NCBI GenBank assembly: GCA_963729635.1
Contig: CAVSOP010000009.1
Span: 64,688 to 128,687, forward strand
DNA: 64,000 nt
Origin: an uncultured archaeon
Lineage (GTDB): Archaea; Micrarchaeota; Micrarchaeia; Micrarchaeales; CABMGC01
Reading direction: 5' to 3'
Below, in pieces: positions 19,371 to 57,527 of the stretch (position 1 is the first letter of the stretch; the number at the start of each line of letters is the position of its first letter). The notes under the pieces are model-generated. The model had not been told where the DNA came from. It made no database searches and saw only the letters and a list, made by a program, of their open reading frames with translations. The position numbers and the translations under genes are program-made.

Positions 19371-19899
19371 ATGAACCGCCGAGCCACGCTCTATTTCATC
19401 CTGGCCTTCGCAGCCACGCTCGGGGTCGCGCAGGCGTTCTGCCCGTGCATAGTGGCAGCGGCCGCGGGGATCGCCGTGGCCAGGTACTTCGGCATAAACG
19501 ACATAGTGACCGGCCTTTGGATCGGCGCGATGCTCTACCTGACGGGCGTATGGACCGAGGACGAGATCAAGAAGTACCTGAGGAGGAGGAACAGGTACAA
19601 CGACTACGCCAGGCACAAGAAGATCGCGATGCACCTGCTGCTCGTCTACGGCATAACCGCGGTCTCCGTCTGACTTCCTGTGGTACTTCGGCTACTTCAG
19701 CGGCTTCTCCGTGATCGTCTACGGCCTGAGGATAAACAGCATGCTTCTGGGCACCGCACTCGGCATGGTCCTGACCCTCTTCACCTCCCTGGCGAACAGG
19801 GAGCTCTGGAACCTCGGCATAAAGCTCAGGCTGCAGAAGACGGCGCTGATAGCGGTCGTGCTGCTCGCGTTCTCCGCCCTGCTCTGGGGCTTCTATTGA
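19371..19899 (+). CDS. Multi-pass membrane protein, hypothetical (frame-disrupted in this sequence)
   Basis: Two ORFs (19329/19371..19673 and 19675..19899) join as ...GITAVSV-(Y)FLWYFGYFSGFSVIVYG... if the extra G at 19672 (tac -> tGac) is removed. Confidence 0.5.
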
Positions 19900-19921
19900 G
19901 CCGCGCAGGGGTGCGTGCGAT

Positions 19922-21254
19922 ATGGGGCTGCAAAATTCGCTATCCGAGGAGTCGTCCGGCGTCGAGCTGAGCGGGGACTTCCGCAGGGCCCTCAGCGCGA
20001 TGGAGGGCGCGAGGAACCTCTTCATAACCGGCGAGGCAGGGACCGGCAAGTCCACCCTCCTCGCGTACTTCAGGCGCACGACCGGCAAGAACGTGGCCGT
20101 GCTGGCCCCGACCGGGGTCGCGGCGCTGAACGTGAAGGGCCAGACGATACACTCCTTCTTCCGCTTCAAGCCCGACATCACCCCGGACACGGTCAGGAAG
20201 CTCAGCTTCTACGCGGCGAGGAAGTACAGGTCCATCGACACGATAGTGATCGACGAGATATCGATGGTCAGGGCCGACCTCCTCGACTGCGTCGACCGGT
20301 TCCTGAGGCTCAACGGGAGGGACCGCCGACTGCCATTCGGCGGCGTGCAGATGGTCTTCCTCGGCGACCTCTACCAGCTCCCGCCCGTGGTCACCGAGGG
20401 CGAGAAGGAGATCTTCAAGGGCCACTACAGGAGCCAGTACTTCTTCGACTCTAGGGCCTTCGAGCGCCTGAGCTTCGGGTTCATAGAGCTCAGGACCCAC
20501 TACCGCCAGAAGGACGCCGAGGACGATAGAGCTCTTCGACGCCATAAGGAACAACACCTTCACAGACGTCCACCTGGCCGAGCTCAACGCAAGGTACGAC
20601 CCGTCCTTCGTGCCCAGGGACAGCGATCTGTACGTCACGCTCACCACGACCAACAGGCTCGCCGACGCCATAAACGGCAGGCGCCTGGCGCAGCTGGCCG
20701 GGAAGGAGTACGCCTACTCCGCCCATTCAAGCGGCGAGCTGGACAAGAGGGCGCTCCCTGCGGACGAGAGGCTCGTCCTGAAGGAGAACGCCCAGGTGAT
20801 GATGCTCAACAACGACCCGGAGAAGAGGTGGGTGAACGGCAGCATAGGCAGGGTCGTCAGCGTCAACCGAGTGCCCGGAGAGAACGATGTGATAGTAGTC
20901 GAGTTCGCGGACAAGACCCAGGCCGTGGTCGTCCCATACTCGTGGAAGCTCTTCAAGTTCTCATACGACACCGCCGCGGGGCGCTTGATGTCCGAGCCGA
21001 TGGGCGGGTTCGTGCAGTACCCGATGACGCTGGCGTGGGCCGTGACGATACACAAGAGCCAGGGCAAGACCTTCGACCGCGTGATAATAGACCTCGGGGA
21101 GGGCACCTTCGCCCACGGCCAGCTCTACGTCGCGCTGAGCAGGTGCACGACCCTCGGAGGGATAGTCCTGAGGAAGCGGATCGAGAGGAGGCACGTCATG
21201 GTGGACCAGCGCATAGTCGACTTCCTCGCGGAGTGCAAGAAGCACGCGGCGTGA
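19922..21254 (+). CDS. PIF1/RecD-like superfamily-1 helicase (frame-disrupted in this sequence)
   Basis: Walker A GEAGTGKS, Walker [19 protein letters not shown], and C-terminal [11 protein letters not shown]...LYVALSRC. The frame switches at 20525 (extra G: gac-G-ata), joining the 19922 frame to ORF 20610..21254. Confidence 0.8.
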
Positions 21255-21302
21255 TAGGTTATATAGGAAGCAATATATACCCATAGCTATATATCAGTAA
21301 AT

Positions 21303-21533
21303 ATGGAAACCACGATTCAAGTGCATCGCACTCTAAAGGATAAGTTGGAGAAATTGAAGATCTACCCTAGAGAATCCTATGCGAAGGTGATTGAAAGGCT
21401 CATTGCGGGAGGAATCGATAGCGAACCCCTCTCTGAAGAAGAGATAAAGGGAATAGAACAAGGTCTGGCCGACATAAAGGCCGGACGGACCTACACGACG
21501 CAGGAATTGAAGAAAAAGCTAGGGATCAAATGA
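21303..21533 (+). CDS. Antitoxin (RHH-type, putative) of a RelE/ParE module
   Basis: 76 aa. Its stop overlaps the toxin start (ATGA at 21530). METTIQVHRTLKDKLEKLK... is compatible with an N-terminal RHH strand-helix. Confidence 0.6.
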   Translation: METTIQVHRTLKDKLEKLKIYPRESYAKVIERLIAGGIDSEPLSEEEIKGIEQGLADIKAGRTYTTQELKKKLGIK

Positions 21534-23131: not shown

Positions 23132-23151
23132 GCATAGCTTGACTTGATTCT

Positions 23152-24866: not shown

Positions 24867-24968
24867 TGCGTCACGCTTGTATTTTAGGCCGAAGCACGTT
24901 TAACACCTACAATTGGTAGATATGTTTTAATATATTGAATAGCGAAGGCTATCTCAGGAGGAGTACGC

Positions 24969-26357: not shown

Positions 26358-26369
26358 TCCCGTTCGGCT

Positions 26370-26992: not shown

Positions 26993-28734
26993 ATGTCCAG
27001 CGTTTCTGTAAGGATATCTGGTGCGAACGGCGACGGCGTAGAGTCCAGCGGCGCGCTCCTCGCGAAGGTCGCGGCCAGGAGCGGCCTTCAGGTCTTCGGC
27101 CACCGCGGCTACCAGTCAGTCATACGTGGAGGGCACGTGTGGAACCAGGTGCGCATCGCTGACGAGAAGCCGTGGAGCCATGGCGAGGGCGCGGACATAC
27201 TTGTCGCGCTCAACCAGGATTCGATAACTTACCAGCGGAGCCATCTCCGCGACGGTGCGACCATCATCTACGACCCGACGAAGGTGAGCGTGGAGTCGAT
27301 CGACACCGCGAAGTACCGGCTGCTGCCCATACCGCTCCTCGACATTGCCCTAAAGGAGGGCGGGGACGCGATAATGCGCAACGTCGTAGCGGTCGGCGCG
27401 GTCCTCGGACTCGTGGGCATGGACATACGGGTCTTGGACGAGGTGCTGAGCGGCATGTTCTCCAAGAAAGGGCAGCAGGCCGTGGACGGCAATGTGAAGT
27501 CCGCATCGGCCGGATATTCCTACGCCGGAGTGAAACCCATCTGCTCTTTGAAGGGCGACGGCAAGACCAGGTACGTGCTTGACGGCAACTCCGCGCTCGC
27601 GATGGGAGCCTACGCGGGAGGATGCAAGTTCTATGCCGCTTACCCGATGACCCCGGCGACCGGGATACTCGCACTGGTTCGCCGCGCACGAGGACAAGGG
27701 GGCGATGTTCAAGCAGACTGAGGACGAGATCGCTGCGATCAACATGACTATCGGCGCCGCGCACGCCGGTGTCCGCGCGATGTGCGGCACGAGCGGAGGG
27801 GGATTCTCGCTGATGGTGGAGGCCCTCGGCATGGCCGGGATGATGGAGGTGCCGATAGTCGTGGTGAATTCGCAGAGGACCGGCCCGAGCACCGGGCCTC
27901 CCTTCCAAGACCGAGCAGGGCGACCTGCTCTTCGTGATGCACGCCTCGCAGGGCGAGTTCCCGAGGATCGTCGTCGCGCCGAGGAGCGTGGAGGAGTGCT
28001 TCAGGGTCGGGAGCGACGCATTCAACCTCGCCGAGCGATACCAGTGCCCCGTCCTGGTGCTTCTCGACCAGTACCTCTCCGAGCACATCGAGAGCGTGGA
28101 CGGGTTCGACTTCGGCTTCGATAAAGATTGACAGGGGCAAAGTCGCGAAAGAAAACGCAGACGGAGGGAAGGTTCAAGAGATACGCGTTAACCGAGGACG
28201 GAGTGTCCCCGAGGTCTTTGCCCGGGACGCCTGGACTTGGAGTTCGTGGCGACGAGCTACGAGCACAACGAGTACGGCGACCTGGTCAGCGACGTCCTCT
28301 CCGGTATAGACGAGCACGTCCTGATGAGGAAGAAGATGCACGAGAAGAGGATGAGGAAGATCGACACATGCTGAAGAACGAGAAGGTATTCGTCCCGGAG
28401 GTCGTGAACGAAGGCGCCAAGTACCACCTGGTGGCGTTCGGCTCCACCGCAGAATCCGCCAGCGGAGGCGGTCGACCTGCTGAAGAAGCAGGGCCTGGAC
28501 TTCGGGCTGATATCCTTCAATTACCTGATGCCTCTGGACGGCGAGAAAACCCGGGCGATCCTTTCCGGGAAGAAGCTCATCGACGTGGAGTGCAACTTCA
28601 CCGCGCAGCTCGCGCAGGTCATAAAGTCGAGCACCGGGATCGACATGCCGAGCAGGATACTGAAATACGACGGCGAGGCGATCACCGGAGAGGAGATCGC
28701 GGAGAGGGCGAAGGAGGAGATCAAGAGCCTGTGA
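26993..28734 (+). CDS. 2-oxoacid:ferredoxin oxidoreductase, fused gamma/alpha subunit (multiply frame-disrupted in this sequence)
   Basis: Gamma-like N-terminus (ISGANGDGVESSG...GYQSVIRGGHVW), then alpha (YAAYPMTPATGIL / FKQTEDEIAAINM / GGGFSLM / NSQRTGPSTG / SKTEQGDLLFV / FKRYALTEDGVSPRSLPG / ...ILKYDGEAITGEEI). Reconstruction needs about 7 frame switches. Fragments include ORFs 26993..27721, 27705.., 27934..28131 and 28528..28734. Confidence 0.8.
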
Positions 28735-28742
28735 TCATATGG

Positions 28743-29634
28743 ATGCCATACGAACAACCTAACGCGCAACCCACGCAGCCCTACGCGTCGGGGGCGAAGC
28801 CGGTGTGGTGCCCTGGCTGCGGCGACCACGTCGTCGTCGCCATGCTGAACAAGGCGCTCACGGAGCTCGGGATCGAGAAGAGCAAGGTGCTCATCGTCTC
28901 TGGGATAGGATGCAGCTCGGCCATGCCGCACTCCGTTCAGCTGCTACGGGGTCGACAGCCTGCACGGCAGGCTGCTCCCCTTCGCGTCCGGGGCGAAGCT
29001 GGCCAACGACGAACTCACAGTCATAGGCACGGGCGGGGACGGCGACGGCTATGGCATCGGGGGAGGCCACCTGGTGCACACCGCGCGCAGGAACATAGAC
29101 ATGACCTACATAGTCATGAACAACGAGATCTACGGCCTCACCACCGGCCAGGCGTCGCCGACGAGCATGATGGGCGCCAAGACGAAGTCCACCCCGTTCG
29201 GCGACATCGAGTCGCCGCTCAATTCGGTCTCGCTGGCGATAAGCTCAGGCGCGACATACGTCGCCAGGGCGTTCGCGGGCGAGCCCGCGCAGCTCGCCGA
29301 GCTGATAAAGAACGGGATAACGCACAAGGGCTTCGCGATCATAGACGTCCTGAGCCCCTGCGTCTCCTTCAACAACCTGAATACGTACGACTGGTTCAGG
29401 AAGCGGGTCTACAAGCTCGACCAGAGCCATGACCCCTCGGACAGGAACGCGGCCATCCTCAAGGCGATGGAGTGCGAGAGCAGCGGTTGGGATAAGATAC
29501 CCATCGGACTGTTCTATCAGGCCTCGAGGCCCGTCTACAGCGAGCTCGACGTGGCGCTCAAGAAGGGGCCCCTGATAAGGCAGCCCATGCCGACCAGGGA
29601 CGAGATTTCGGGCGTGATGGACGAGTACAAGTGA
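28743..29634 (+). CDS. 2-oxoacid:ferredoxin oxidoreductase, beta subunit (one frame disruption)
   Basis: WCPGCGDHVV...SGIGCSS (inside the frame of ORF 28128..29432), then GGDGDGYGIGGGHLVHTARRNIDMTYIVMNNEIYGLTTGQ (frame of ORF 29074..29634). Switch near 28930. Confidence 0.8.
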
Positions 29635-29725: not shown

Positions 29726-30598
29726 ATGCCTGCGAAAACCAAAGATTCCGGAAACTGCCATTGCGGATCCGCCTTTACCAAGGTCCTGACTGTGATCGGT
29801 GCTTTGGCGATAGCGTTCGCGATACTGATGGGCCTTGCCTTCGCGGTAAGGGTCATCGCGGGAGGCGCCGCCGCCAGAGGCGCTTACGTCGGGGTCTTCC
29901 CGAACCAGTACGGGAACATGCGCACGATAACGCTTACCGCATCGGGATCGGCTTCCGCCGCGCCGGATATGGCCGAGATAATGGTGTTTATGAACGGGAC
30001 AGGGCAGACGGCCGCCCTGGCAAACGCGAACCTGAGCACGACGGTCGCGGCCATGAACAGGACGTGATGCCTTTCCTCAACGGCAACACCTCACTGATCC
30101 AAACGACGAGCTACCAGATATACCCTGCTACCAACTGCACCTATCCCGTGGTAACGCCTGCCACAATTCCTGTCACGACCCTGCCATACTATTGCGTAAC
30201 TCACAAGCTGCCCTACTACGTCGCGTCGGAGAGCTTCGTGATAAGCGTGCCTAGCATAAGGAACTCATCCCAGGCCATAACCGGCCTGTCAAAGATACCC
30301 GGCATCCAGCTGCAGGGCGTCCAGGCGGCGCTCAGCACGGGCCTGCAGGGCACGCTGAACAGGAGGCGCTGTCCGTGGCGCTCGCGAACGCCACCAGCCA
30401 AGCGCAGCTGCTCGCGGGCTGGGGAGTGCACATCTCCGTGGAGAACATAACCGTGCAGTCCGGCCTGGTCTACTACCCCGCTAAGGTTGCGATGCTTCGA
30501 ACGCCGGCGGATCCGTTGCGGTCGTCAATTCCTCGGCGTTCTACGGAGGGAAGGCTACGACGCAGAAGAGCATACACGTCGTGTTCGGCATCCAGTAG
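29726..30598 (+). CDS. SIMPL/DUF541-like secreted protein (frame-disrupted in this sequence)
   Basis: N-terminal TM. ITLTASGSASAAPDMAEIMVF resembles the DUF541 start. Continues through 3 more frames (ORFs 29726..30067, 29761-frame, 30375-frame) to a stop at 30596..30598. Confidence 0.45.
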
Positions 30599-30670
30599 GA
30601 TGCCGTCGCCTTGCTGTGTCATCCGAGAGACAGAGCGGAATGATACAACATGCCAGTCTGACCGAGGGAG

Positions 30671-31845
30671 TTGATTTTGACTGAAAACAAGTATCTTTTA
30701 TTCATGGACCGCAGGTTCAGGTCGATGGCGCGAGAGGAGGCGATGTCGCTCTTCCCCGGCTGCAGGCTGGAGAAGTACGGGACGCAGGGAGTCGTCTGCC
30801 CCCTGATGGTCCTTACAGAGAACGATGTCAATCTCTCGAAGGCCGACGCAACTTTCATAGACTTCGCGGTGCGCATAGATGCGACGCTTGAGGACGCGAA
30901 GGGGGATTACGACAGGATCGAGGGCGCGATAGCCGAAGTCCTCGGGAAGAACCCCGGCAAGTCCTTCAGGCTGGAGGTGAGGAACATAGAGTCCAGGATA
31001 GGGCAGAACGCCAAGACCATTGAGGTGCGCCTCGGCAGGAAGCTCGAGGAGCACGGTTTCCTCGCGGACATCCACAAAGGGGAAGTCGTGATCTACGTGG
31101 TGCTCATCAACGACGACGTGCTCATCGGCCACGCGGATGCGCGCACGGGCAGAGGCCTCGCTATGGATATGCTCAGGCTGGAGCAGGCCGAAACGGGCAG
31201 GATGATCAACAGGGCGGAGTTCAAGATGAAGGAGGCGGTGGAGTTCTTTGGCGTGGACCTGAAGAAGGTCAGGACCTGCCTTGACATCGGCGCGGCACCG
31301 GGCGGCTGGACGCACTACCTTTCGCAGCGGGGCGTCAGGGTTGTGGCGAGGGACACCGCGCTCCTGGATTACGGGAAGGTCGCAGAAGGGAAAAGCGTGC
31401 TAGTGCTTGTGAATGGTGCCGACGTGACGGCTACGCGCGAGATGATAAAGTCGCTGGCGCCGGCCAGCAACGTGACAGTGGCGGACATCGACGGGCCCGA
31501 TGCGGGATTCGGGGACTACGACATAGTCCACGTCAAGGCGAGCATGCCGCAGGACAGGCTGATGGCTTTGCTCGGAAAGTTCGGGAAGTTCGACATGCTC
31601 GTGATAGACGCCAACACGCCGCCCGAGGACAGCGCCAAGATAGCCGACGAGATGGCATGCCTGACGAGGCCGGCTCGCCGCTCCTGATGACCGTGAAGCT
31701 CGTCAGCCTTTCCTTCAGGAGACACATAAGAGTCGATAAAGGACGGGCTTGCGAAGAGCTACGATTCGGTAAGGATAAAGAAGCTGATCCACAACCGGAT
31801 GGAGCTGACAGCCTACGCCATCTCAAGAGGAAAGCAGGAACCTGA
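30671..31845 (+). CDS. RlmM/FtsJ-like RNA 2'-O-methyltransferase with THUMP-like N-domain (3' end frame-disrupted; stop uncertain)
   Basis: INRAEFKMKEAVEFF...CLDIGAAPGGWTHYL is the FtsJ/RlmM SAM motif. The C-terminal ...IKKLIHNRMELTAYAISRG parallels the RlmM end but lies in shifted frames (switches near 31670 and 31735). TTG start at 30671. Confidence 0.55.
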
Positions 31846-31920
31846 TCCGGAGTCCATGTCAGCCGTGGTGGTGGCCGCAGCCGCACGAATGCTTGCCGCA
31901 ATCCCCCGTCCCCGAGGAAC

Positions 31921-32121
31921 TTATCCTTTACGCATTCGTCCAGGTTCAGGCACTTCCTTATCAGCCTCGGGGTCCTTCGCGGCCTTCTTCGCAAGGCCTT
32001 CGCACGACCCGTACCCGCACGCGCCGCAGTTGAACTTCGGCAGCATCTCCAGAATCTTCTCGACATCCTTGTCAGCAGGCATAGTGATCTCACCGAGAAT
32101 CCTCTGATATATGGTGCTCAA
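31921..32121 (-). CDS. Small putative Fe-S cluster-binding protein (RnfB-N/FeS domain-like)
   Basis: 66 aa. LPKFNCGACGYGSCEGLAKKAAK matches the LP..dCg.CGy..C..yA motif of the PF04060-type domain. Confidence 0.5.
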   Translation of the reverse strand: MSTIYQRILGEITMPADKDVEKILEMLPKFNCGACGYGSCEGLAKKAAKDPEADKEVPEPGRMRKG

Positions 32122-32230
32122 CAGCTATTAACTTTTCTTTTAAGGCGCGGCCTGCGTGCCCGCCGCATGATCCATGCAAATAGGCTTATTAACGGGGAAA
32201 ACAAACAATATTGCAAGTGACTTTGGTAAT

Positions 32231-32479
32231 ATGATGCCCAGCAGGAAATTCCAGAAGCGGCCGGAGGACTTCGTCTGCGAGAAGTGCGGCGCGGAGGTGA
32301 AGGGCAGCGGCTACACTGACCACTGCCCGAAATGCCTGGTCAGCAAGCACGTCGACAACAATCCCGGAGACAGGGCGTCGGAGTGCAAGGCGCTGATGTT
32401 CCCGGTCAGGACGCACTACAAGGACGGAGGGTTCATAATAACCTACAAATGCAGTGGCTGCGGAAGATCAAGGAAATGA
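32231..32479 (+). CDS. RNHCP domain protein (3' end possibly frame-disrupted)
   Basis: FVCEKCGAEV...GYTDHCPKCLVSKHVD...YKCSGCG matches the RNHCP zinc-ribbon pattern. The likely natural C-terminus (IKEMKAAADDNEELLFKLL) lies in the next frame. Confidence 0.55.
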   Translation: MMPSRKFQKRPEDFVCEKCGAEVKGSGYTDHCPKCLVSKHVDNNPGDRASECKALMFPVRTHYKDGGFIITYKCSGCGRSRK

Positions 32480-32521
32480 AGGCCGCTGCGGACGACAACG
32501 AGGAATTGCTGTTCAAGCTGC

Positions 32522-33345
32522 TTAACGTGAGGACAATAGCGGACAGCCAACAGCTATGCCTTTATCATGGTCCCCTAGCACTTCTTCGCCTTTCAGTGCC
32601 TTGGTCAATGTTCCCGGGGGTGAGCGCGTTCACTATCTGCGATTCTATGCCGATCCCGAGCAACTCGGAGACCTTCTCTGGACATTCCCCCGGTGACGTC
32701 GGTAGCGGTGGAGCCCGTCAGCCCTATTTTACCTGGTCTATGTTCGCTGAGTTTATCTCTCGTATCAATTCGCATCCGGATTCTTGTTGGGATCGGAGGT
32801 GAAAACGCCGTCCACGTTCCCCGCGTGTATGATCCTTTCCGCATTCAACTTGACCGCCAGGTAAGGCGCGATCTCGTCGCCGGAGAGGATCGAGCACTTC
32901 TGCTTCTCGTCATAGGCGGGGACTCCATAGAGGACAGGGACCATGCCTATCTCCACCAACTTTTCTAGCGTGGTGGTGCACATATTCGACCAGTTTGCCA
33001 GAATTCATGACCGCCGATGCCGACGCCTGGAGCGGGAACGCGGGCACGTCCTCTGCTATCAGGTACTTTGTGACCATGCAGTTAAGTTCGTTCTGCAGTC
33101 TCTGGGTCTCAGCGAAGTCCTTCAGCTGGCTGTCCGTCCTTATGCCTTTGTCGATTCCCGTCTTTTTCACTATGACGTGGCCGTACGAACCGACGCCGTG
33201 GATTATTATCAGCCCCTCCTTGCGGTTCCACGCAGAAGAGATTTCCTTAGAGATCTTTGTCAGGTTCTCCGGGTTTATCCTGGGCAGTGTCGCTGAACTT
33301 GTCCGTGATAACGGAGCCCCCGACTTTCAATATTGTAAGGTTCAT
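32522..33345 (-). CDS. Isopentenyl phosphate kinase (multiply frame-disrupted in this sequence)
   Basis: MNLTILKVGGSVITDK start at 33345. Then HGVGSYGH, ...GDEIAPYLAVKLNAERIIHAGNVDGVFTSDP and TDVTGGM...KVSELL...ALKGEEVLG are spread over about 6 frames (ORFs 33247.., 32910..33170, 32765..32983, 32605..32844). Confidence 0.7.
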
Positions 33346-33739
33346 GCCAATCACTATTCTATCATCAATGCTTTCCCCGTCGATTCTGACTCTGCTCCCC
33401 GTTTTGATGTTCTCCAGGGCAATCTTGTCGACGCACGGAATGTCGGATATTATCGCCCCAACGGCCACTATGGGCTCGCACTCCTCGTTTATGATGGCGA
33501 TCGGGGCGACGCCGTTCTTCTTCATCCGGTACAGCACGTAGGAGCCGACCGTGGAGCCCTTTCCGGTGGGGAAGACCAGCACCTTGCCCTTTACGCTCTT
33601 GCCCTCCAGCGGGTGCCCCTTTTCTATGAAGATACCGGTGTCGGGGTCCACGCCGCCCAGGAATCCTATCGGCTGGCTGGAGACGAGCGCCTCGCCCTCT
33701 GCCTTGTCCGTACCTTATGACCCTTCCCTTGAGCATCAT
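33346..33739 (-). CDS. Aconitase X small (swivel, DUF126) subunit / phosphomevalonate dehydratase small subunit (one frame disruption; no stop before IPK)
   Basis: MMLKGRVIR.. then GEALVSSQPIGFLGGVDPDTGIFIEKGHPLEGKSVKGKVLVFPTGKGSTVGSYVL matches DUF126. ATGA overlap with the large-subunit stop at 33736..33739. Frame switch near 33700. Confidence 0.7.
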
Positions 33740-34933
33740 TCCCATCTACCCGTTATCGCCGCGCCTATGCACTGCTCGAGAGAGCCGAACCTTACCTTTA
33801 GCCCCGAGTGGGTCGGCGCGTAGAACGCCGCCTTGCCGGAGTTCGTGGCCAGGTTCGTGAATCCGAAGTCCTCGACCGGCGCGACCACCAGGCACGTGTC
33901 GTTGAGCACCTTCCCTCCGCTCTGCGTTATGGTTCCGACCGCCTCCTTCGCCTTCTCGCTTACGTACTTGGAAGTGGTTATCCACAGCTCCGCCTTCACC
34001 TTCTTGCCCCTCAGCAGTTCCGCGATCCTGTTAAGCTCCTCCACGGAGGCGTGCGGGCAGCCTATGCTGACGAAATCTATGTCCTTGACATCTGAGTTCA
34101 GCGCCGCGTAGCCCTCGTCAAGGCTCTCTATGGTTATCCTCTCCGCCGTGTCCCTCAGCGCGTTCCCTTCTTTGGCCTCCGGAGTGATCCCCTCGGCGTG
34201 GTACAGCGCCACCGCGCCGCTCGCGGCCATGGATGCGCCGAAGACCTTGAGCTTGTCGCGGTCCGATTCGTTCAGACCCTTCACGTAGGGCACCTTGTTC
34301 TTGACCATCCTGCCGATCATGTTCCCGAGCGCGCCGAAGTCCTCGAATCCCTTGACCTCGCACTTCACGTCGAATACGAAGTCCGCCTTCCTGTTCTCGT
34401 CCAGGTGGAAGCCGTACGCCGCGGTCTTCCCGCAGATGGCGGCGGCAAGTGCCGAGGGGCCTCCCTCCCTGTTGGTCCTCGCGCCTATCACCGAGTTCGC
34501 GTACGCTACAGCAGACGATTCGCCCCACGCTATGTGCTCCCCGAACTTCGGGTACGTTGCCGATCAGGTAGGGGGTGCACGTGCACGTCGATGGTATTCC
34601 CATCTTCATGAACGCGTCCATGACCTTGAGCTGCTTCTTCGCGAACTCCTCCTTGAACCCGAGCTTCCTCCAGTTCTCCAGGTCCATGCCGGCCGGGTTC
34701 AGCGTCGTCTTGACGGTGATTTTGCCCCCCTTGCTCGCCCAGTCCTCCAGGAACTCTATTCCCGCGTCGCCAAGGTTCTTGTAGCTGACCCCGGAGACCT
34801 GCACGCTCCCCACGTCGACCAGCTTCTCCGCGTCGTAGATCTTCCCCAGCGCCACGATGATCTCCATGGCCTTGCGCACGCCCTCGCCGCCCTCGCCCGC
34901 GAGCATCCGTTCTTCTTCTTTCGTGAGGAACAT
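33736..34933 (-). CDS. Aconitase X catalytic (DUF521) subunit / phosphomevalonate dehydratase large subunit (one frame disruption)
   Basis: MFLTKEEERMLAGEGGEGVRKAMEIIVALG...TCTPYLIGN (ORF 34118..34933) continues as GEHIAWGESSAVAYANSVIGARTNREGG... (ORF 33736..34491). Switch near 34545. Confidence 0.8.
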
Positions 34934-46082: not shown

Positions 46083-46783
46083 TCACTTGTGCTTGCGCCC
46101 GCGCTTCAGCTTGGGCTTCGGGGCTCTCCTCGCTTTCTTCGCAGCCTTCTTGGCGGGCTTCCTCTTGGCCTCCCTTCTCGCAGGCCTCGGCTTCGCTCCC
46201 GCGGCCTTCCTGGCGCCCGCCGGCCTCGGCGTCCCGAAGACCCCCGCCCTGAGGGCCTCCCTCACGGCGGCCCTGTTCCTGTCGAAGAGGGTGTCGAGCG
46301 TGGCGTCGATCTTTATCCTGCCGCCGGCCGCGTAGACCACCAGCCCGTCGCTCTTGGCGTACTTTATCTTGCCCGTGAAGCCCTTCACGTACCTGGCGTC
46401 GTCCTTGTCGATGACCAGGGTGAGGTCCTCCATCGGCGAGATCTTCCTGCGCCTCGGCGATCGCGGAGTCGAAGAGCCTCTTGTAGCCCTTCTCCCGGAT
46501 GCGCTTCACGACCGTGGCCCTGGCCCTCTCGACGAGGTCGTCTATGAGACTGCTCCCTGGCCGCGAGCAGGATGTTCCTCTCCTGCATCTCCCTGGACGA
46601 CTTGTACTCGAGGCTTATGCGGCCTATCTCGTCCTTGAGCTCGCGCTCGAAGGCCTCGTTCGCCGCGTTGGCCTTGGCCTTCGCCTCCCTGATCGCGGCC
46701 TCGGCCTCTTCCGCGGCCCCTTTCTCGATGGCGGCGGACTTCTTCCTGGCCTCGTCCAGTATCTCCTTCTGCAGTGCGTCCAA
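46083..46783 (-). CDS. atpE: A-type ATP synthase subunit E with basic A/K/P/R-rich C-terminal tail (two frame disruptions)
   Basis: MDALQKEILDEARKKSAAI... (ORF 46385..46783), IDDLVERARATVVKRIREKGYKRLF (third frame), MEDLTLVIDKDD...IDATLDTLFDRNR (ORF 46083..46433). Single extra bases at 46546 and 46434. Confidence 0.85.
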
Positions 46784-46800
46784 GTGGCATGGTGCCGACC

Positions 46801-47044: not shown

Positions 47045-48971
47045 TCATTCCTCTTTAGTGTAACGCCTCTTGTAACCGAACGGGCTGAACTCTACCCCGC
47101 CTCCCTCGTAGAACTTCGAGAAGAACTCAACGAAGTTGAGCCTGACCGCCTGCACCGAGCCCTCGAATATGCCCAGTATCATATTCATGAAGTGCAGCAA
47201 TATAAAGATTACGAGGGTCAGCGAGAAGACCACTATGCCGCTGGACAGCGACGGCGTGAAGACCACGTCTATGAGAAGCGCGGTCATGACGCTAGCGAGC
47301 CCGAAGCCCATGAGCCGCGCGTAGCTCAGGGGGTGGGAGATCAGGCTGGTCATCTCGACCGCCTCCGATCCCGCTGAGGACCACTGTGGCCAGCGCCGCG
47401 ACCACCGAGGCGGCCGCGCAGACGACCGCATACTGGCTGAGTATCCCGAAGAAAGTGCCCGCTATCGCGACCGTGCCCGCGAGCAGGAACACGATGGACG
47501 TGATCTTGCTTATCGCCAGCTTGACGTGGCCCTTATTGTACTGGTTGATGAAGCCGAACGCAAGGCCGAGGGTCACCTGCACGATCCCCATGAGCACCCC
47601 CGCCGCCAGTATGGTGGTGAGGTTCTTGAGCCAGTCGAAGCCCTGGAAGGTCGTGAAGTACTGGTTCATCGGGAGGCCGAAGTACTGGTTCGAGAGGAAG
47701 CCGAAGAAGATTATGGATACGGAGCAGAGCTGCCATATCTTCGCCGTGTTGCAGACCAGGTCGTCGGGGTTCGTTATCCTGGTGACCAGCGTCGCGAGCA
47801 GGAACGACATGATGCCGTAGCCCACGTCGGAGATCATCAGGCCGTAGAATATCGGGAACGTGAGTATGAATATCCAGGTCGGATCCAGCTCGTCGCTCCT
47901 CGGCAGGTTGACGAAGCTCACGAGGAAGTCGAAGGGCTTCAGGAACTCCGGCCGCTTTACGAGCGTCGGCGCCAGTTCGTCTGTCTCGAGCGCGTCAAGC
48001 ATGAACCTGCCCCTGGCGACCCTCTCCAGGTCGGCGCGGAGCGAGCCCAGGCGGCCCTTCACGATCCAGCCCTCGATTATGAACGTCGAGTCGGTCTTCT
48101 TGAAGTTCGCGCTGACCCCGGCCCTGTCGGCCTCGACGGCGAGCATCTCTATGATGCTGGCGATCTCCAGGTAGCTCTTCGAGGCGTGGTTCACGAGCTT
48201 TCGGAGGATCTCCGCCTTCTCCGCTGCAAGCTTCTGCCGCCGCCCGTCGAGCCGCGCGAGCACTTCCTCCGGCTTCCCGTCGAGCCTGCCGTTCTCGATG
48301 TCTATCTCGTAGACGCCGTTCATCCCCGTGATCCCGCCGAGCGCCTCCGCGCCGCCCTTCCTGTACGCTATGAACAGCAGCCGCTCGTCCTTCGTCTGCT
48401 TGTGTATCATCTCGTGGGCCCCCCTGAGCGTCGCGAGCTCAGCGTCGACCTTCGCAGACGCGCCCTTCGCTATGGAGAACGCCCTGAACGAGAGCACGCC
48501 GCTCCCCAGCCTCGAGAAGTCTATCCCGGTGCCCGTGAAGCGGTTGGCGAGCGTCCTCGCCTCTGCGATGGAGTTCAGCTCCGCGTCTATCGCGTTCCTG
48601 CGCTCCTCCAGCGAGAAGACCTCTCCCACCGCCTTCAGCGACCTCGCCTTCGCTATGAGCAGCTCGCCGTCGACCTGCCTGTGCGCAGCGGCGTGAGCCC
48701 TGACCTTCTTCTCGTCGAGGTGCTTCTCCACCACGACCTTGAGCTTCTTGTCCAGGTGCCTCCTGAGTATCGCCTCCGCGGACCTGTACCTGATGGTCAG
48801 CTCGGAGACGGCGGGCACCTCCAGCGCGGCGTCGTCCTGCGCCGGGAGCGCGCTCTTCCTTATGTCCATGACCCCCCTCTTGTGGAGCTCCTTTATGATC
48901 GCGTACTTCCTGTTCTTGAGGGCTATTATCCTGATCTTCTGCATCCGCTCGGTATGGAGCAAATCATTCAC
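47045..48971 (-). CDS. atpI: A-type ATP synthase subunit I (a) (one frame disruption near the 3' end)
   Basis: ORF 47292..48971 has a cytoplasmic coiled-coil N-domain and TM helices. The conserved last helices (ISHPLSYARLMGFGLAS...LHFMN...VQAVRLNFVEFFSKFY) lie in ORF 47045..47431. Switch near 47365. Confidence 0.85.
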
Positions 48972-51617: not shown

Positions 51618-52493
51618 ATGCCCAAACAAGACCTTGCATATCTCTTGCTGAGCCTGAGGGAGGATGTCAGGGGCCTCCGCTTCCTGTTGGATGCCTTCGG
51701 CAACTGGTACGATTTCGCGCTCCTCTGGATCGGGGTCAAGGACGACGTGACCCTGGTGTGCAATTACCCCCGCTGCAAACTCAAGACAGTCAGCATCGAC
51801 GCGGGGGACGGCCTGATAAGGATCGTCTACAGGAACAGGCCGCTGCTCTTCAGGTTCGCCTCGAGGAAGCAGCTGGGCAACGCGATGCGGAACATCTATC
51901 AGTGCTTCATACAGGAGCAGTACGGGGCCGTGCGGGTGAGGAACAGGACCGTAGTGGACATCGGAGCGAACAACGGGGACAGCGCGATATATTTCGTGGC
52001 GAATGGCGCGTCCAAGGTGTACGCCTACGAGCCGTACCCCCGCTCTTTCGGCCAGGCGAGGGGCAACATCCGGCTCAATGGCATGCAGAAGAAGGTGAGG
52101 CTGGCCAACGAGGCGGTCGGCGCGCGGGCCGGGGAGGTGTCCCTGGACCCCGGATACGAGAGCGTGAGCAACTCGATGCTCGAGGAATCGCGGCACGGGA
52201 AGAGGATAAGGGTGACGACCCTTGACCGCATCGTGGCCGCGCACAGATTGCGGAACGCGGTGCTCAAGGTGGACTGCGAGGGGAGCGAGTACGGGATATT
52301 CTCGGGCGCCAGCGACGCCTCCCTCGCATGCTTCGACCAGGTGGCCATAGAGTACCACTTCGGCTACGAGCGGCTGGTGAAGAGGCTGATGGCCGCGGGG
52401 TTCAGGGTGAGCTACACCGAGCCGAAGGCGACCAGGAACGCGGAGACCAACGGCGTGAGGATCGTGTACGGTGACATATATGCAAGGAGGTAG
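51618..52493 (+). CDS. FkbM-family methyltransferase
   Basis: 291 aa. VVDIGANNGDSAIYFVANGASKVYAYEPYPRSF...LKVDCEGSEYGI matches the FkbM family. Confidence 0.75.
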   Translation: MPKQDLAYLLLSLREDVRGLRFLLDAFGNWYDFALLWIGVKDDVTLVCNYPRCKLKTVSIDAGDGLIRIVYRNRPLLFRFASRKQLGNAMRNIYQCFIQEQYGAVRVRNRTVVDIGANNGDSAIYFVANGASKVYAYEPYPRSFGQARGNIRLNGMQKKVRLANEAVGARAGEVSLDPGYESVSNSMLEESRHGKRIRVTTLDRIVAAHRLRNAVLKVDCEGSEYGIFSGASDASLACFDQVAIEYHFGYERLVKRLMAAGFRVSYTEPKATRNAETNGVRIVYGDIYARR

Positions 52494-54143
52494 GCGCGCG
52501 GGCCTCGGGGGGCGAACTGTCACCGCCACGGGGCTCAGGCGCGACCGCGACGAGCGGCGCAGGAGGCTCGTGCTTCTGGCCCTCGTCATAATCATGGGCT
52601 ACGCGCTCGTCTACCAGCTAGTCTTCGTGGAGGGCCCGTCCTATTTCGGAGACGACACCGTGTACACATACTACGCCAACCTCGCGCTCCACGGGACGTT
52701 CTCGGAGAACATGGACATATTCAGCGTCAGGCTCCTCAACATCTACCCCATCGCGCTCTTCTACGCCCTCTTCGGAATCGGCAAGCTCTCCAGCGCGGGG
52801 TGGGCCATAGTCTCCTTCCTCGGATCCATAGCGATCGCCTTTCTCCTGGGCAGGGAGCTGTACGACGAATACGCCGGCCTGCTCGCGGCCCTTCTGCTCA
52901 GCTTCTTCCCCCTCCTGGTGGCGCTCTCCGGCACCCCAAGCCCGAACATCCCGGAGATGTTCCTGGCGGGATTGGCGGTCCTCGCGGCGGTCTACGGGGT
53001 CAGGAGGAACTCGAGGGGATGGTATTTCGCGAGCGGGGCCTCGCTCGTCGCGGCAGTCCTGGCGACGCCGGAGAGCGGCTACATCGTCCCTGTCGTGTTC
53101 GCCTACCTGCTCGCGGAGCTGCTCAGGAAGAAGATAAGGGTGGATCGGACCAGCCTCTTCTTCGTGGCCGGAATCCTGATCGCGGGGGCGTCCGTCCTGC
53201 TCGTCAACTACGTCTCCTGCGGCAACCCGCTGCAGACGCTGACTGTGACCTCCGCGGTGTACAGCACCGCCGGTACGCCGGCGGAGGGCATAATCATCAA
53301 CACGAACCCATACTTCTACTTCGGCGTCATGTTCCCGTACAACGCGATCGGCTCCCTGGCTTCGATGCTGGCCGGGCATAACCTAGGCCCGACCGCGATC
53401 TGGAATTACGTCTTCCAGGCGAACTACAACTTCGCAGGCTTCTTCTTCTACGCGTTCGCGCTCTGCGCGGCGTACCTGCTCCTCGCACGGGAGAGGAGGG
53501 CCTACGTGCCGCTGCTCTGGTTCGCGATCGGCTTCCTGTTCCTGGAGTTCGGGCCAATATACGTCAGCCTGGTCCCTTTCAAGTACCTGCTCACGCACAG
53601 GCTCGAGAGGTACCTGACGCTGATAGCGATACCTCTCGCGCTGACGGTGTCCTTCGCGGTGATGAGCCTCCGTGAGAGGCTGCGGAAGGCGAAGCACGGA
53701 TACCTGGCGCTCGTCCCGTTCGTCCTGGTAGCCTTCCTGATAGTGACCGCCATACCCGTCGAGCAGCTTCTGTACCGACGCTGAACTACCAGCTCTACGA
53801 CCAGACTGCGATCGCGAACTACCTCAACGCTATGCCCAACACGACAAGGATAGCCTACGAGAGCGGGTTCTCGATAATGCAGGTCTACATGCACTATGAC
53901 AACATGACCAGGTTCCTTGTCTACGACCAGCTGAAGAACTGCACCGAGATACCCTCTGGATATTACGTCGTAATGCCCGAGTACGACGAGGTCTTCGGCC
54001 TGAACTACACGCCGAACCCCATCCAGTACTGCCCCGACTGGGAACTCGTCTACTCCCCGCAGATAGGCGGCAGCTATCCCGCCTACATAACCGGCGCCGG
54101 GCAGATGAGCGCCGCGCAGTTGTACTACGTGCGGCCAGGGTGA
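52471..54143 (+). CDS. GT-C fold glycosyltransferase (ArnT/PMT, GT39-like) multi-pass membrane protein (one frame disruption)
   Basis: More than 10 hydrophobic segments. N-terminal YFGDDTVYTYYANLALHG loop as in ArnT/PMT_2 enzymes. The extracytoplasmic C-domain continues in ORF 53832..54143 after a switch near 53780. Confidence 0.55.
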
Positions 54144-54245
54144 ACTCCCTTTCGGCTCCCGTGTAAGCAATAAATACCCTGAGCAACAATGATGTGTACG
54201 TTGGCATCGTCCGGGCAGCGCCTTGGCGGAGCACGGTGACTATTC

Positions 54246-55321
54246 ATGGCGGCAAGGGAATTCCTGGGATTGGGCATCACTGCGCTCAAGTCTAATTTCA
54301 CCGCGCTGGTCGAGCCCTACAAGCTCAACTTCGCCATAACCTACCGATGCCAGGCACGCTGCAGGACGTGCAACATCTGGCAGACGAAGCCGAGCGGCGA
54401 GCTGACGCTCGAGGAGATAACCAGGTTCGCGGAGAAGAACCCCTCCTTCAGGTGGATCACGATAACTGGCGGAGAGCCCTTCCTGAGGAGCGACATAGTC
54501 GAGATAGTAGACGCCTTCAGGAGGAACTCGAGAGGGCTCTACCTGGTCACGATCCCGACCAACTCCCTGTCGAGCAGGGAGCTCGTTCTCGGCAAGGTGG
54601 AGGAGATAATGAAGCTCGGCATACCCAAGCTCTCTATAACTCTCAGCCTCGACGGGGGCCGCGGGCTGCACGACGAGCTGAGGGGCGTCCCGGGGCGTTC
54701 GACCGGGTGATGGCGCTGGCCAAGGGGCTCAGGGAGCTCCAGAAGAGATATTCCGGCCTCTACTTCGTCTTCGGCTACACGATAAGCAGGTACAACGTAG
54801 GAAGGCTCAAGGAAACCTACGAGGCGGTTAGGAAGGAGATCCCGGAGGCCGCATGGAACAACTTCCACGTCAACGTGGCGCATACGTCGGAGATATACTA
54901 CAGCAACCTCAACATGGACCTGAAGACCGAGAACGCGGCGATAGCGCGGGAGCTCAGAGGCTTCGTAAGGAAGAGGAGAGCCGGGGCCAACGCCCTGGAC
55001 GCGGTCGAGAGCGTATTTCTGAGGAACCTGATCAAGTACGTCGAGACCGGCGAGTCCCCGATGAGGAGCAGGAGTCTCGACGCGTCCCTGTTCGTAGACA
55101 GCAACGGGAACGTCTTCCCCTCGATAATGTGGGCCAGGAAGCTCGGGAACCTCAGGGATACCGGTTACGACCTGAGACCGATATGGGCCGGCGCGCAGGC
55201 CGCTGAGGCGCGGAAGCTGCTGCGGGAGGGAAAGGAGCCCGTTTCGTGGACCGCGTGCGAGGCGTACCAGGCGATAGTCGGAAACCTGCCGAGCTTCATC
55301 GGTCTCTTTCTCCCCGTATGA
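54246..55321 (+). CDS. Radical SAM enzyme (one frame disruption)
   Basis: FAITYRCQARCRTCNIW (CxxxCxxC), ITGGEPFLR. The second half lies in the frame of ORF 54347..55321. Switch near 54690. Confidence 0.75.
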
Positions 55322-55417
55322 GTGGGCCTGCGCGCAAAGCATCTCCAACGCACCTCAGCGGAAGTCATATATATCTACATGTTGTAACATGTTATGACAT
55401 TATAATACGTGATACGA

Positions 55418-56203
55418 ATGGCCATGGATGCAAAAAACGCTGCGAAACCTTCGGAGGACGAGTTCGGCTCGGACAGGACCCAGAGGTGCATAGACCTGAT
55501 GAGGCCCGAGGTCAGGAAGCTGATGAAGCTGACCCTCGCCCAGAAGATAAAGAAGTCCGAGGAGATAATCAGGCAGGCCGCCAAGAAGTACCCGAACATG
55601 GGAATGGGCTTCAGCGGAGGCGCGGACAGCGAGGTCATGGCGCACATCGTGCTGAAGATAAAGCACGACATCCCGATCCTGTTCGTCGACACCAGGTACG
55701 AGTTCCCCGAGACCTTCGACTTCGTCGAGAAGCTGAGGAAGGAGTGGGACTTCGAGAGCCTGACCACCGTAAGGGCGGGCACGGACAAGGCCGAGGAGTA
55801 CAAGAAGAAGTACGGATTCGGAACCCCGGAGTTCACGCTGGCCTTCAACAAGCACCACAAGATAGAGCCCATGATGAGGGGCGTTAGGACCCTGCACATG
55901 GACGCGTTCCTCGGCGGAATAAGGGGCGTCGAGCACGAGGAGAGGGCGAAGGAGAGCATATTCTCCCCGAGGAAGGACCACATGAGGGTGCATCCCCTTC
56001 TCTTCTGGACCAGGGACGACGTCAAGACCTACCTGAAGAATAACAAGCTGCCGTACCACCCGCTGTACGACAGGGGCTACACGTCGCTGGGATCCACCCT
56101 GGACACGACCCCGAACAAGGGCTCAAGCATGCACGAGAGGGCAGGAAGGGGCGTTGCGAGGGAGAGGATAATGAAGAAGCTCAGGGCGCTGGGTTACAAC
56201 TAG
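55418..56203 (+). CDS. PAPS reductase/ATP-sulfurylase-fold (CysH-like) family protein
   Basis: GMGFSGGADSEVMAHIV (PP-loop-like), ILFVDTRYEFPETFDFV, PLYDRGYTSLG. ATG at 55418 (the track ORF starts at GTG 55409). Confidence 0.75.
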   Translation: MAMDAKNAAKPSEDEFGSDRTQRCIDLMRPEVRKLMKLTLAQKIKKSEEIIRQAAKKYPNMGMGFSGGADSEVMAHIVLKIKHDIPILFVDTRYEFPETFDFVEKLRKEWDFESLTTVRAGTDKAEEYKKKYGFGTPEFTLAFNKHHKIEPMMRGVRTLHMDAFLGGIRGVEHEERAKESIFSPRKDHMRVHPLLFWTRDDVKTYLKNNKLPYHPLYDRGYTSLGSTLDTTPNKGSSMHERAGRGVARERIMKKLRALGYN

Positions 56204-56303
56204 AGCCCGATCCGGAAGTTCTGCGGGCCTATGCCGATTCCAGGCATGGGCTCCTGCGCAGAATCTTCGTGCAGCCCGCAACCTTTTTATCCTACGAACG
56301 AGA

Positions 56304-57527
56304 ATGATTCGCATGAGGAAGTTCAACATATCCATAATCGTCCTGGATACCATCAGGCTGGACACTTTCAAGATGCTGAACAGGAGGAAGGACCTGAACC
56401 TCTCGAAGCTCGGCAACTTCTTCTACCTTGGACAAGTGCATAGCCCCTGCGACCTGGACCCTCCCTTCGCACGCGTCCCTGTTCACCGGCCAGTACCCTG
56501 CGGAGCACGGCGCGCACGAGACGCGCACGGTCAAGTGCCTCGACATAGACAACATAATGCTCAAGTCGAAGACGTTCATAACCGACCTCAAGGAGATGGG
56601 CTACACCACCTACGCGGTGACGTCCAACCCATACTTCAGCCCGGTCTACGGCTTCGACGAGTTCGACCGCTTCATAGAGGAGACCTACTTCACCGACGTC
56701 TACGGCAGCGTCGTCGAGGTCTCCGAGAAGATCAAGCCCAGGATGGCGAAGTACAGGAGCAAGTACGGGACAAACGTGCTGAGGATATCCGCCGCGGTGC
56801 TCGGCGAGGACCCGGGCCTGTTCTTCGAGGCGCTCGCGACGGGCCTGGTCCTCACCCCGATCGCGGTCATGAAGAAGATGAAGGCGAAGCTGATCGACAA
56901 TTGGCCGATAGAGAAGGGCGGGAGGAACATGGTGCGCGTCGAGAAGCGGATGAGGCTCAAGAAGCCCTTCCTCTTCTTCGCGAACTTCATGGAGCCGCAC
57001 GACCCTTACGTCGGCACGCCATCCAAGGACCTGAACTGGTCCACGTCATTCATGAAGAAGGAGGTCGACCCCAAGCTGCTGAAGCTGTGGAAGAGGGCTG
57101 TACCTGAAGGCGTCGATAAGGGGCTTCAAGTACGCCCACGAGATGGTCGCGGACCTGATCGAGCGGTTCGGCGACGACCAGATGATAATCTTCCTCTCGG
57201 ACCACGGCCAGTCCTTCAACGAGCACGGCTACGTGGGCCACGGGATAAAGCTCTTCGACGAGTCGGTCAGGGTGCCTTTCGCGGTGATGATGCCAAAGGG
57301 GTTCAAGGAGGTGAAGTCCAACGACTACTCCTCGCTCGTGAACGTGACGCGACTTCATCTTCGCCGCGCTGCAGGGCGACGAGAACGCCATGGAGAGGCT
57401 CTACAGCAAGGTCGTGAGGGCCGAGAGCTTCGGGATCCCCGCCAACGTCTCGCACGTCAAGGGCATAGACATGAACAAGGTTCGCAAGAACGACATAGTC
57501 AGGGTAAGGGAGTTCAAGTCAAGATGA
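56304..57527 (+). CDS. Alkaline-phosphatase-superfamily hydrolase/transferase (NPP/sulfatase-like, Thr nucleophile) (three frame disruptions)
   Basis: ISIIVLDTIRLD; TWTLPSHASLFTG (T-x-P-S-H..TG, NPP-like rather than sulfatase CxPxR); FMEPHDPY; FLSDHGQSFNEHGYVGHG. Pieces are ORFs 56304.., 56428..57417 and 57143.., plus a last frame to a stop at 57525..57527. Confidence 0.6.

Follow-up and report, generated by a model that had tools for sequence, protein, structure and literature searches.

Clustered single-base frame disruptions in a 38-kb block of an archaeal metagenome-assembled contig are very probably consensus errors

The 64,000-nucleotide stretch of archaeal DNA analysed here (the window) contains 47 single-base frame disruptions across 20 genes between positions 19672 and 57347, as revealed by frameshift-aware alignment to close references. 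Insertions make up 36 of these one-base events and deletions the other 11. Since the genes are intact in assemblies made independently from the same population, we regard the breaks as assembly errors: it is very probable that they are consensus errors of the deposited contig, and that the organism's genes are intact. The indels are present in the public record and were not introduced later, and they are the sole lesions in the affected genes. As the likeliest cause, we infer that the consensus of co-occurring strains was error-prone and probably derived from long reads.

A preliminary description of the sequence had counted about 38 frame switches in 18 genes and attributed them to consensus indel errors rather than to pseudogenes. 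The attribution is borne out by the 20 covered sites discussed below, and the disruptions are real, but the count was too low. The genes that it named do need frame switches, as alignment to close references and Pfam matches across the junctions confirm, whereas two further ones had escaped it, a mevalonate kinase with events at 36357 and ~36326 and, at 31914 and 31965, a small FeS-domain gene. The affected genes are the following, together with the non-coding sites.

19371..19899, plus strand: membrane protein gene (175 aa repaired), extra G at 19672; intact at 175 aa in Logan contig L090 (SRR28022536), which reads TAC in place of the window's TGAC.
19922..21254, plus strand: PIF1-like helicase (443 aa), extra G at 20519 (GCC+G) and a compensated -1/+1 pair at 20327/20331; the N-terminal frame matches Pfam PIF1 and the C-terminal frame UvrD_C_2; intact in L090 (443 aa).
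26993..28734, plus strand: 2-oxoacid:ferredoxin oxidoreductase (OFOR) alpha, seven events (+1 at 27671, 27897, 28113, 28166, 28236, 28461; -1 at 28367); a single frame throughout in Logan contigs L091, L088 and L089; POR, POR_N and PFOR_II matches span the junctions.
28739..29634, plus strand: OFOR beta subunit (297 aa), extra G at 28752 and 28935; intact at 297 aa in L089 (SRR28022536) and L088; the TPP_enzyme_C match spans the junction.
29726..30598, plus strand: SIMPL-family protein (291 aa), missing bases at 30063, 30363 and 30492; intact at 291 aa in L088; SIMPL model 1-205/205 matched in one stretch.
30648, intergenic spacer: single-base deletion (window versus L088).
30671..31831, plus strand: FtsJ/RlmM-like methyltransferase (386 aa), base lost at 31671 and base gained at 31733; at 31829 the window has GGA for the stop codon TGA; intact in L088 (386 aa).
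31858 and probably 55417: non-coding indels akin to that at 30648 (window versus L088 and L084).
31859..32082, minus strand: small FeS-domain (PF04060) gene (73 aa), +1 at 31914 and 31965, from the L088 gene table and alignment.
32174..32520 (end approximate), plus strand: RNHCP-domain gene, base missing at ~32466, after CSGCG; repair extends the Pfam match from 2-75 to 2-89 of 90 and raises it from 82.5 to 96.4 bits.
32554..33345, minus strand: isopentenyl phosphate kinase (IPK, 262 aa), seven events (+1 at 33285, 32984, 32676, 32606, 32575; -1 at 32769, 32731), from frameshift-aware alignment to P0150 (262 aa, 88% identical); AA_kinase match in one stretch.
33358..33745, minus strand: AcnX small (swivel) subunit, extra base at 33707 (GGA+C) close to the N-terminus, from alignment to L086, L087 and L001.
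33736..34933, minus strand: AcnX large subunit (398 aa), +1 at 34549 (CCC+G, coding strand); intact in JGI contigs L086 and L087; AcnX model 1-399/400.
34938..36245, minus strand: UbiD-family decarboxylase (434 aa), +1 at 35839, 35907, 36018 and 36096, -1 at 36240, directly behind the start codon; intact at 434 aa in L086, L087 and P0130; UbiD_N and UbiD matches span the junctions.
36275..37311, minus strand: mevalonate kinase (342 aa), +1 at 36357 and ~36326 in the C-terminal part, from alignment to L086; unrepaired, the C-terminus is Arg-rich nonsense.
38524..39482, plus strand: deoxyhypusine synthase (DHS, 318 aa), +1 at 38935 (GGG+C) and 39093 (GTT+C); intact in L086, L087 and P0124; DS model 1-286/288.
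39659..40820, plus strand: S-adenosylmethionine synthetase (MetK), +1 at 40046 (TCC+G), from alignments to L001 and L087; its three Pfam domains are contiguous after repair.
46083..46790, minus strand: A-type ATPase subunit E (atpE, 234 aa), +1 at ~46784, ~46549 and ~46449, from protein-guided alignment to P0126 and P0127, each intact at 234 aa.
47045..48946, minus strand: A-type ATPase subunit I (atpI), +1 at ~47368, from alignment to L001 and L002; intact in the ENA relative (638 aa).
52480..54143, plus strand: PMT_2/GT39-like glycosyltransferase (554 aa), T missing at 53776; the T is present in L085 (SRR28022536) and L084, both otherwise 100% identical to the window.
54246..55321, plus strand: radical SAM enzyme (358 aa), one G lost from a G5 run at 54692; intact in P0136, L085 and L084, all otherwise identical to the window.
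56304..57527, plus strand: sulfatase/alkaline-phosphatase (AP)-family enzyme (406 aa), +1 at ~56427, ~57094 and ~57347, from alignment to P0270 (98% identical, intact at 406 aa); the Sulfatase match spans the junctions.

For single genes, the earlier figure of about seven switches in OFOR alpha is exactly right, OFOR beta, which it also listed, has two events, and the base losses seen in the SIMPL-like gene correspond to three deletions. Its estimates for IPK (about five), UbiD (four) and atpE (two) rise to seven, five and three. As for the sites that it had localised, those at 19672 and 40046 are exact, and the insertions placed at 20525, 46434 and 46546 exist but lie at 20519, ~46449 and ~46549. 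There is no indel at 28130: the frame is broken at 28113 and at 28166 instead, the TGA at 28129 being just an out-of-frame stop.

Most events were located by a six-frame hidden Markov scan with codon-usage repair. This repair mishandled the junctions at 34549 in AcnX and 40046 in MetK, introduced spurious events at gene ends and missed events beside start codons (UbiD 36240, atpE 46784). For the ATPase region we used L001 and L002, two Microflora Danica MAGs whose atpA is 88-89% identical at the protein level. Both carry frameshifts of their own that differ from those of the window, and L001, with breaks at the equivalents of 33836, 39157 and 45727, is for this reason not a clean reference. 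The loci of the cysS orthologues P0003 and P0004 (L082, L083) showed no synteny with the window.

One argument comes from independent assemblies. Logan contigs from the runs SRR28022536 and ERR11594402, which are 98-100% identical to the window, cover 20 of the 47 sites, and the indel is absent from all 20, though in SNP-rich patches these contigs represent a slightly different haplotype, such that this is not strict proof that the window haplotype lacks indels there. Eight of the sites are covered by contigs of SRR28022536, whose sequence elsewhere agrees 100% with the window, and 12 further ones by the ERR11594402 contigs L084, L088 and L091. L090 and L089 are without the events at 19672, 20519, 28367, 28461, 28752 and 28935. 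L081, from the same run as these two, matches the window at 100% along 2.5 kb, and L085 differs from window positions 52531-55412 (2.9 kb) at just two bases, both of them predicted frameshift bases. The comparison with orthologous loci of close relatives that had been recommended gives the same picture, in that every affected gene covered by the JGI contigs L086 and L087 (90% identical) or by the gene table of ENA ERZ1426829 is intact. Truncated ORF fragments have entries from NCBI/ENA (201,553-bp contig), never from Logan, and the protein collection that was searched contains at least 14 fragments of the split genes.

This comparison bears on the question whether the genes are truly decaying, that is, whether the strain has some 47 real frameshifts and belongs to a dying or host-complemented lineage. 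DPANN archaea are host-dependent and have reduced genomes, and given the differing haplotypes of the comparison contigs in SNP-rich patches, the indels could in principle be strain-private. We nevertheless consider genuine decay very unlikely. The 2.9 kb around 53776 and 54692 are identical to an intact version from the same run, and the genes hit include ATPase subunits, MetK, DHS and the mevalonate pathway. Furthermore, all 47 lesions are 1-nt indels, with no nonsense substitution, larger deletion or lost stop among them, the neighbouring SNPs retain a synonymous excess, and a bias of insertions to synonymous sites has no mutational rationale. It is extremely unlikely that the window haplotype is a real separate strain with true frameshifts, either collapsing or rescued by an intact strain or a host, with the comparison contigs representing a healthy sibling strain.

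Repair of single bases restored all 20 genes to full length, with no in-frame stops and no larger lesions. A proper stop codon follows wherever the alignment reaches the last codon of the reference, except in the RlmM-like gene (GGA for TGA) and the AcnX small subunit. Pfam models match continuously across the junctions in the repaired PIF1, OFOR alpha and beta, SIMPL, IPK, AcnX, UbiD, DHS, MetK, atpE, atpI, radical SAM, sulfatase/AP and RNHCP genes. Genes that are otherwise perfectly conserved, and functional if each shift is corrected, might also be expected if the frames were restored by programmed recoding, be it ribosomal frameshifting, transcriptional slippage or RNA editing. However, recoding is already effectively refuted: the sites have no slippery or other motif in common, +1 and -1 events are both present, up to seven fall within one gene, and there are indels in non-coding DNA too. 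Nor is any site conserved in a relative, as judged from L001, L002, L086 and L087.

The events are confined to one part of the window. In the flanks of 19.6-57.4 kb none was detected, as against about 32 expected at the same rate. Among the flank ORFs tested (0.3-17.3 kb), Pfam domains are complete in 8 of 10, the other two having no Pfam family, and positions 17011-19671 are identical to L090; the earlier statement that 1-19.3 kb is free of breaks agrees with our data. It had also listed cysS, atpA/B/C/D/F/H/K, nth and thrS as unaffected, which holds: cysS is identical to L081, and the other genes do not differ in length from their counterparts on a near-identical ENA contig. Its claim that the breaks are confined to conserved genes is in part a matter of ascertainment, because the indels at 30648, 31858 and probably 55417 are non-coding, and the errors are therefore not limited to coding sequence.

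Inside the block, the breaks are clumped far beyond chance (index of dispersion 2.6 in 1-kb bins; 0 of 20,000 simulations as high). Clean stretches of 6-7 kb adjoin patches with 4-7 errors per 0.3-0.8 kb. The clustering that had been noted as odd is thus real, and it tracks patches of strain polymorphism. In 200-nt bins, indels and SNPs between the window and the Logan contigs co-occur with an odds ratio of 18 (p = 1.4e-6; p = 0.0015 with same-run contigs only), and of 29 indels, 12 have a SNP no more than 4 nt away, versus 2.5 expected (0 of 5000 permutations). These SNPs are 58% synonymous, with C<->G among the commonest types, and we therefore take them to be real polymorphism.

Another explanation, in line with the preliminary description, would be a plain low-coverage or unpolished block, in which random read errors survive independently of any strain mixture; the breaks would still be artefacts, but with another cause. 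Low coverage is a known source of such errors (PMC9262707), and several features fit: the errors end abruptly outside 19.6-57.4 kb, the deletions are without codon-position pattern, and two of them lie in a SNP-free stretch. On the other hand, random errors would not be expected to follow SNP-rich patches or to prefer synonymous sites for insertions, nor to leave 6-7 kb clean beside such dense patches. On balance, we think this explanation rather unlikely.

The sites have no sequence motif in common. A homopolymer cause is not supported, the longest run at the sites being at most 5, and no k-mer at the sites is significant after correction (of 127 4-mers tested the best has p = 0.007, of 300 5-mers p = 0.0008). 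We considered systematic basecalling errors at DNA-modification motifs, as the window encodes an N6/N4 DNA methylase (5179-6459), several insertions are a G after CC, and GGAC/GTCC is found near 13 of 50 sites versus 6.2 expected. This is highly improbable: besides the failure of any k-mer to survive correction for the number tested, such errors are mostly substitutions, not indels, and should occur contig-wide, yet the flanks and 6-kb stretches are clean.

By contrast with a chance fraction of 0.41-0.45, 25 of the 36 insertions (69%) place two synonymous alternatives next to each other as a doublet, which is C/G in 12 cases, a moderate enrichment (p = 0.0004-0.0025). In TCC+G, CTC+G and GGG+C, for example, two synonymous third-codon alleles appear to stand side by side. 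The bias to inserted G or C that had been described is weak as a base bias: it would be explained by the preference of insertions for synonymous third positions, which are nearly all G or C here (GC3 ~88%), and since the inserted member of a doublet is undecidable, it is better termed a third-codon-position effect.

Taken together, these observations suggest how consensus errors over co-occurring strains may have arisen. The reads behind the contig would have been error-prone, probably long, and would have come from a population containing two or more closely related strains. Stretches without differences between the strains would give a clean consensus; in patches where synonymous SNPs abound, the effective coverage per haplotype would be low, or the polisher would mishandle mixed columns. 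Either could yield single-base indels, often with both third-codon alleles written in tandem, which would add one base and shift the frame, and with third positions ~88% G/C, the added base would mostly be G or C. Strain mixing does not cover all events, because the deletions at 53776 and 54692 sit in 2.9 kb without SNPs.

Residual-indel frameshifts in long-read MAGs below ~40x coverage are well documented (PMC9262707; PMC8302730). As in the cases addressed by the IDEEL test, proovframe and short-read polishing, single-base indels here split conserved genes, are absent from short-read or independent assemblies, and number about 1 per kb across the stretch concerned (PMC9262707; bioRxiv 10.1101/2021.08.23.457338). 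Unlike them, they occupy a single 38-kb block, are clumped at sub-kb scale and are mostly insertions outside homopolymers rather than homopolymer deletions. This excess of non-homopolymer insertions is unlike textbook nanopore consensus error and counts against our explanation. Collapsed-strain consensus, as described for Strainberry, likewise spans co-occurring strains, with SNP-rich patches alternating with identical stretches and frameshifting indels where haplotype coverage is split (PMC8302730). The tandem synonymous-allele signature is our reading of the sequence, and we found no description of it in the collapsed-strain literature compared. Reduced symbiont genomes with pseudogenes also combine many frameshifted genes with a small-genome, host-dependent organism, but here there are no nonsense mutations, larger deletions or relaxed constraint, essential core machinery is affected, and intact copies exist in the same sample.

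For users of the public genome, about 20 genes in the 38-kb block are split or truncated as deposited, and the fragments would lower completeness and metabolic-reconstruction calls for this DPANN (Micrarchaeota-like) archaeon. The combination of SNP-rich patches with two synonymous alleles in tandem at artefactual insertions provides a read-free diagnostic, which could help to spot consensus errors from strain mixtures in further long-read MAGs. For the biology of the organism, the breaks would be of no consequence, its ATPase, MetK, DHS and mevalonate-pathway genes very probably being intact.

Numerous shifts of frame within the same strand were traced at 19.6-57.5 kb by a three-periodic Markov/Viterbi scan together with codon-usage "repair"; frameshift-aware alignment to close references resolved these into 47 events of one base each, 36 insertions and 11 deletions, spread over 20 genes. 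The preliminary description, which had counted about 38 switches in 18 genes, recognized the disruption and slightly undercounted it. Pfam matches and alignment bear out the frame switches in the genes it named, while a mevalonate kinase and a small FeS-domain gene were missed and events adjoining start codons, in UbiD, atpE and the beta subunit of the oxidoreductase, were overlooked. Two of its six pinned sites, 19672 and 40046, are exact; the remaining four are off by 3-17 nt, and 28130 is merely an out-of-frame stop codon. The events are strongly clumped (index of dispersion 2.6, equalled in none of 20,000 simulations), with three event-free gaps of 6.4-7.2 kb lying beside 4-7 events in 0.3-0.8 kb. 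At the rate of this block the flanks should hold about 32 events; none was detected in them. One-base indels relative to contigs of run ERR11594402 are also found in non-coding DNA, at 30648, 31858 and probably 55417.

The indels are present in the public record. Fourteen of 20 guessed ORFs occur in the protein collection (NCBI and ENA, 201,553-bp contig), 12 of them as truncated fragments, some with out-of-frame tails; none of these 12 has Logan as a source. The same indels are missing from independent assemblies, where intact versions were reached through the 90%-identity clusters of the recorded fragments. An intact radical SAM protein of 358 aa (P0136) matches the window's repaired protein residue for residue and is encoded on the Logan contig L085 of run SRR28022536, on L084 of ERR11594402 and on a 39,790-bp ENA contig. 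The gene table of this last contig lists every gene as intact, in synteny with window 44-64 kb. Over window 52531-55412, L085 differs from the window solely in that the latter is without T at 53776 and without one G of G5 at 54692, precisely the two frameshifts that had been predicted. Another contig of that run, L081, matches window 23943-26433 at 100% identity. The indels at 19672, 20519, 28367, 28461, 28752 and 28935 are missing from L090/L089 (also SRR28022536), and twelve further ones from the ERR11594402 contigs L084, L088 and L091, which are 98-99.8% identical. In the JGI contigs L086 (90% identical) and L087, AcnX, UbiD, mevalonate kinase and DHS are intact, as is MetK in L087. That the affected genes are intact in independent assemblies supports the earlier reading of the disruptions as consensus indel errors rather than pseudogenes.

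Repair of the genes points the same way, since Pfam models span the junctions of the repaired proteins as single continuous matches:

Continuous Pfam matches in repaired proteins
Oxidoreductase alpha subunit: POR, POR_N, PFOR_II
Oxidoreductase beta subunit: TPP_enzyme_C
SIMPL-family protein: SIMPL 1-205/205
Isopentenyl phosphate kinase: AA_kinase
AcnX: AcnX 1-399/400
UbiD: UbiD_N and UbiD
DHS: DS 1-286/288
MetK: three MetK domains
atpE: vATP-synt_E
atpI: V_ATPase_I
Radical SAM enzyme: Radical_SAM
Sulfatase/AP enzyme: Sulfatase

The RNHCP match is extended upon repair from 2-75 to 2-89 of 90. One-base repairs restore full length with zero in-frame stops in all 20 genes, and a proper stop follows the last codon of the reference wherever the alignment reaches there, except in RlmM and AcnX small. 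In the RlmM-like gene, the stop TGA of L088 is GGA in the window (31829), either a SNP or an error, and the repaired gene overruns the reference end. In the PIF1 gene, a -1 and a +1 event at 20327-20331, separated by 4 nt, compensate each other (L090 ACGAAG, window CGACTG); the frame is kept and two residues are altered.

In a decaying genome, nonsense substitutions and larger deletions would also be expected, yet one-base indels are the only lesions in the affected genes. Genuine decay is very unlikely, because the repaired genes are full length without in-frame stops and no frameshift site is common to the window and any relative compared. The Microflora Danica contig L001 (CAVWAD010000004.1) has one-base frameshifts of its own in AcnX, DHS and atpC, at the equivalents of window 33836, 39157 and 45727, sites that differ from the window's. 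Programmed recoding is excluded, as relatives share no site.

The indels track polymorphic patches, with a bias towards synonymous sites. Against Logan contigs, the window shows SNP patches alternating with long identical stretches. Synonymous changes make up 58% of these SNPs and third codon positions 55%, and C<->G ranks with the most frequent types, as expected at a GC3 of about 88%; they therefore represent real strain polymorphism. Twelve of 29 indels have a SNP no more than 4 nt away, versus 2.5 expected (0 of 5000 permutations). In 200-nt bins, SNPs and indels occur together at an odds ratio of 18 (p = 1.4e-6), and the association is also seen with same-run contigs only (p = 0.0015). 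Most insertions, in coding orientation, read as a codon plus a second, synonymous third base:

Synonymous doublets by window position
TCC+G: 40046, 28935
CTC+G: 27671, 31914, 36018
CCC+G: 34549
ACC+G: 35839
GCC+G: 20519
GGG+C: 27897, 38935
GTT+C: 39093
GGA+C: 33707
GCG+A: 36357

An objective classifier assigned 25 of 36 insertions to this type, versus 41-45% of random insertions in the same genes (p = 0.0004-0.0025). A methylation motif or homopolymers as the cause are argued against, since no k-mer is enriched at the indel sites after correction and no homopolymer there exceeds 5. Elsewhere, L084 shows no substitution over 3.9 kb and then six SNPs in 150 nt (55432-55579), directly past the extra A at 55417; L085, from run SRR28022536, stops at 55412. 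This looks like the edge of a strain-variable patch.

The deposited contig is probably the consensus of error-prone and presumably long reads from two or more strains that co-occur. At positions of strain difference, coverage per haplotype would be low, or mixed columns would be resolved with both alleles kept, which would yield a +1 frameshift; the G or C of the "inserted" base would follow from the G/C of third positions. Long-read MAGs retain frameshifting indels at coverage below about 40x and where coverage is split among strains (PMC9262707; PMC8302730). Strain mixing leaves unaccounted for two deletions in the SNP-free 53.8-54.7 kb, as well as the lack of pattern in the deletions; for both, ordinary low-coverage error suffices.

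Genes that had been described as unaffected are so: a Logan contig carries an identical cysS, and nth, thrS, the remaining ATPase subunits and neighbouring genes have the lengths seen in the near-identical ENA contig. The left flank is free of indels where testable, with complete Pfam domains in 8 of 10 ORFs (0.3-17.3 kb; the other two have no Pfam family), and 17011-19671 is identical to a Logan contig. Several further features were seen:

5179-7607 (-), low-GC island: N6_N4 DNA methylase with a fused Mrr-like nuclease domain (426 aa, intact ORF), adjoined by a DDE transposase (IS240/rve_3-like, 396 aa, intact ORF)
12011-16012 (+): intact 1333-aa ORF with YDG, MBG_2 and Big_3_5 domains, probably a surface protein, crossing the edge of a low-GC stretch
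21303-21787: toxin-antitoxin pair, DUF7557 and ParE toxin (L090 gene table)
38468-38475: 8-nt tandem duplication (CAGTATAT) upstream of the DHS gene, not in L001 or L086; L087 differs there
62593-63085: toxin-antitoxin pair, HicB-like and HicA (ENA contig gene table)

The window comes from an uncultured DPANN archaeon. In the genome collection it is closest to two MAGs from Microflora Danica that carry the label "uncultured archaeon" (88-89% identity of the atpA protein), followed by 'Candidatus Micrarchaeota' MAGs, and homologues of the window's sulfatase bear the source label Micrarchaeota. The cysS protein (24969-26357) has 100% identical entries from the 201,553-bp NCBI/ENA contig and a Logan assembly. 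Behind some ten close relatives among archaea, its best source-named matches (57-59% identity) are in many cases labelled Ignavibacteria and other bacteria, which hints at a bacterial-type or transferred gene. The atpA match spans 2.2-2.6 kb in several relatives (L001, L003, L033) versus 1.8 kb in the window, and these may carry an intein or insert.

The frame disruptions are neither recoding nor pseudogenisation, and they are no new biological feature of this archaeon. What the window presents is the kind of indel error well known from metagenome assemblies, with a twist of its own in being insertion-rich and strain-linked.
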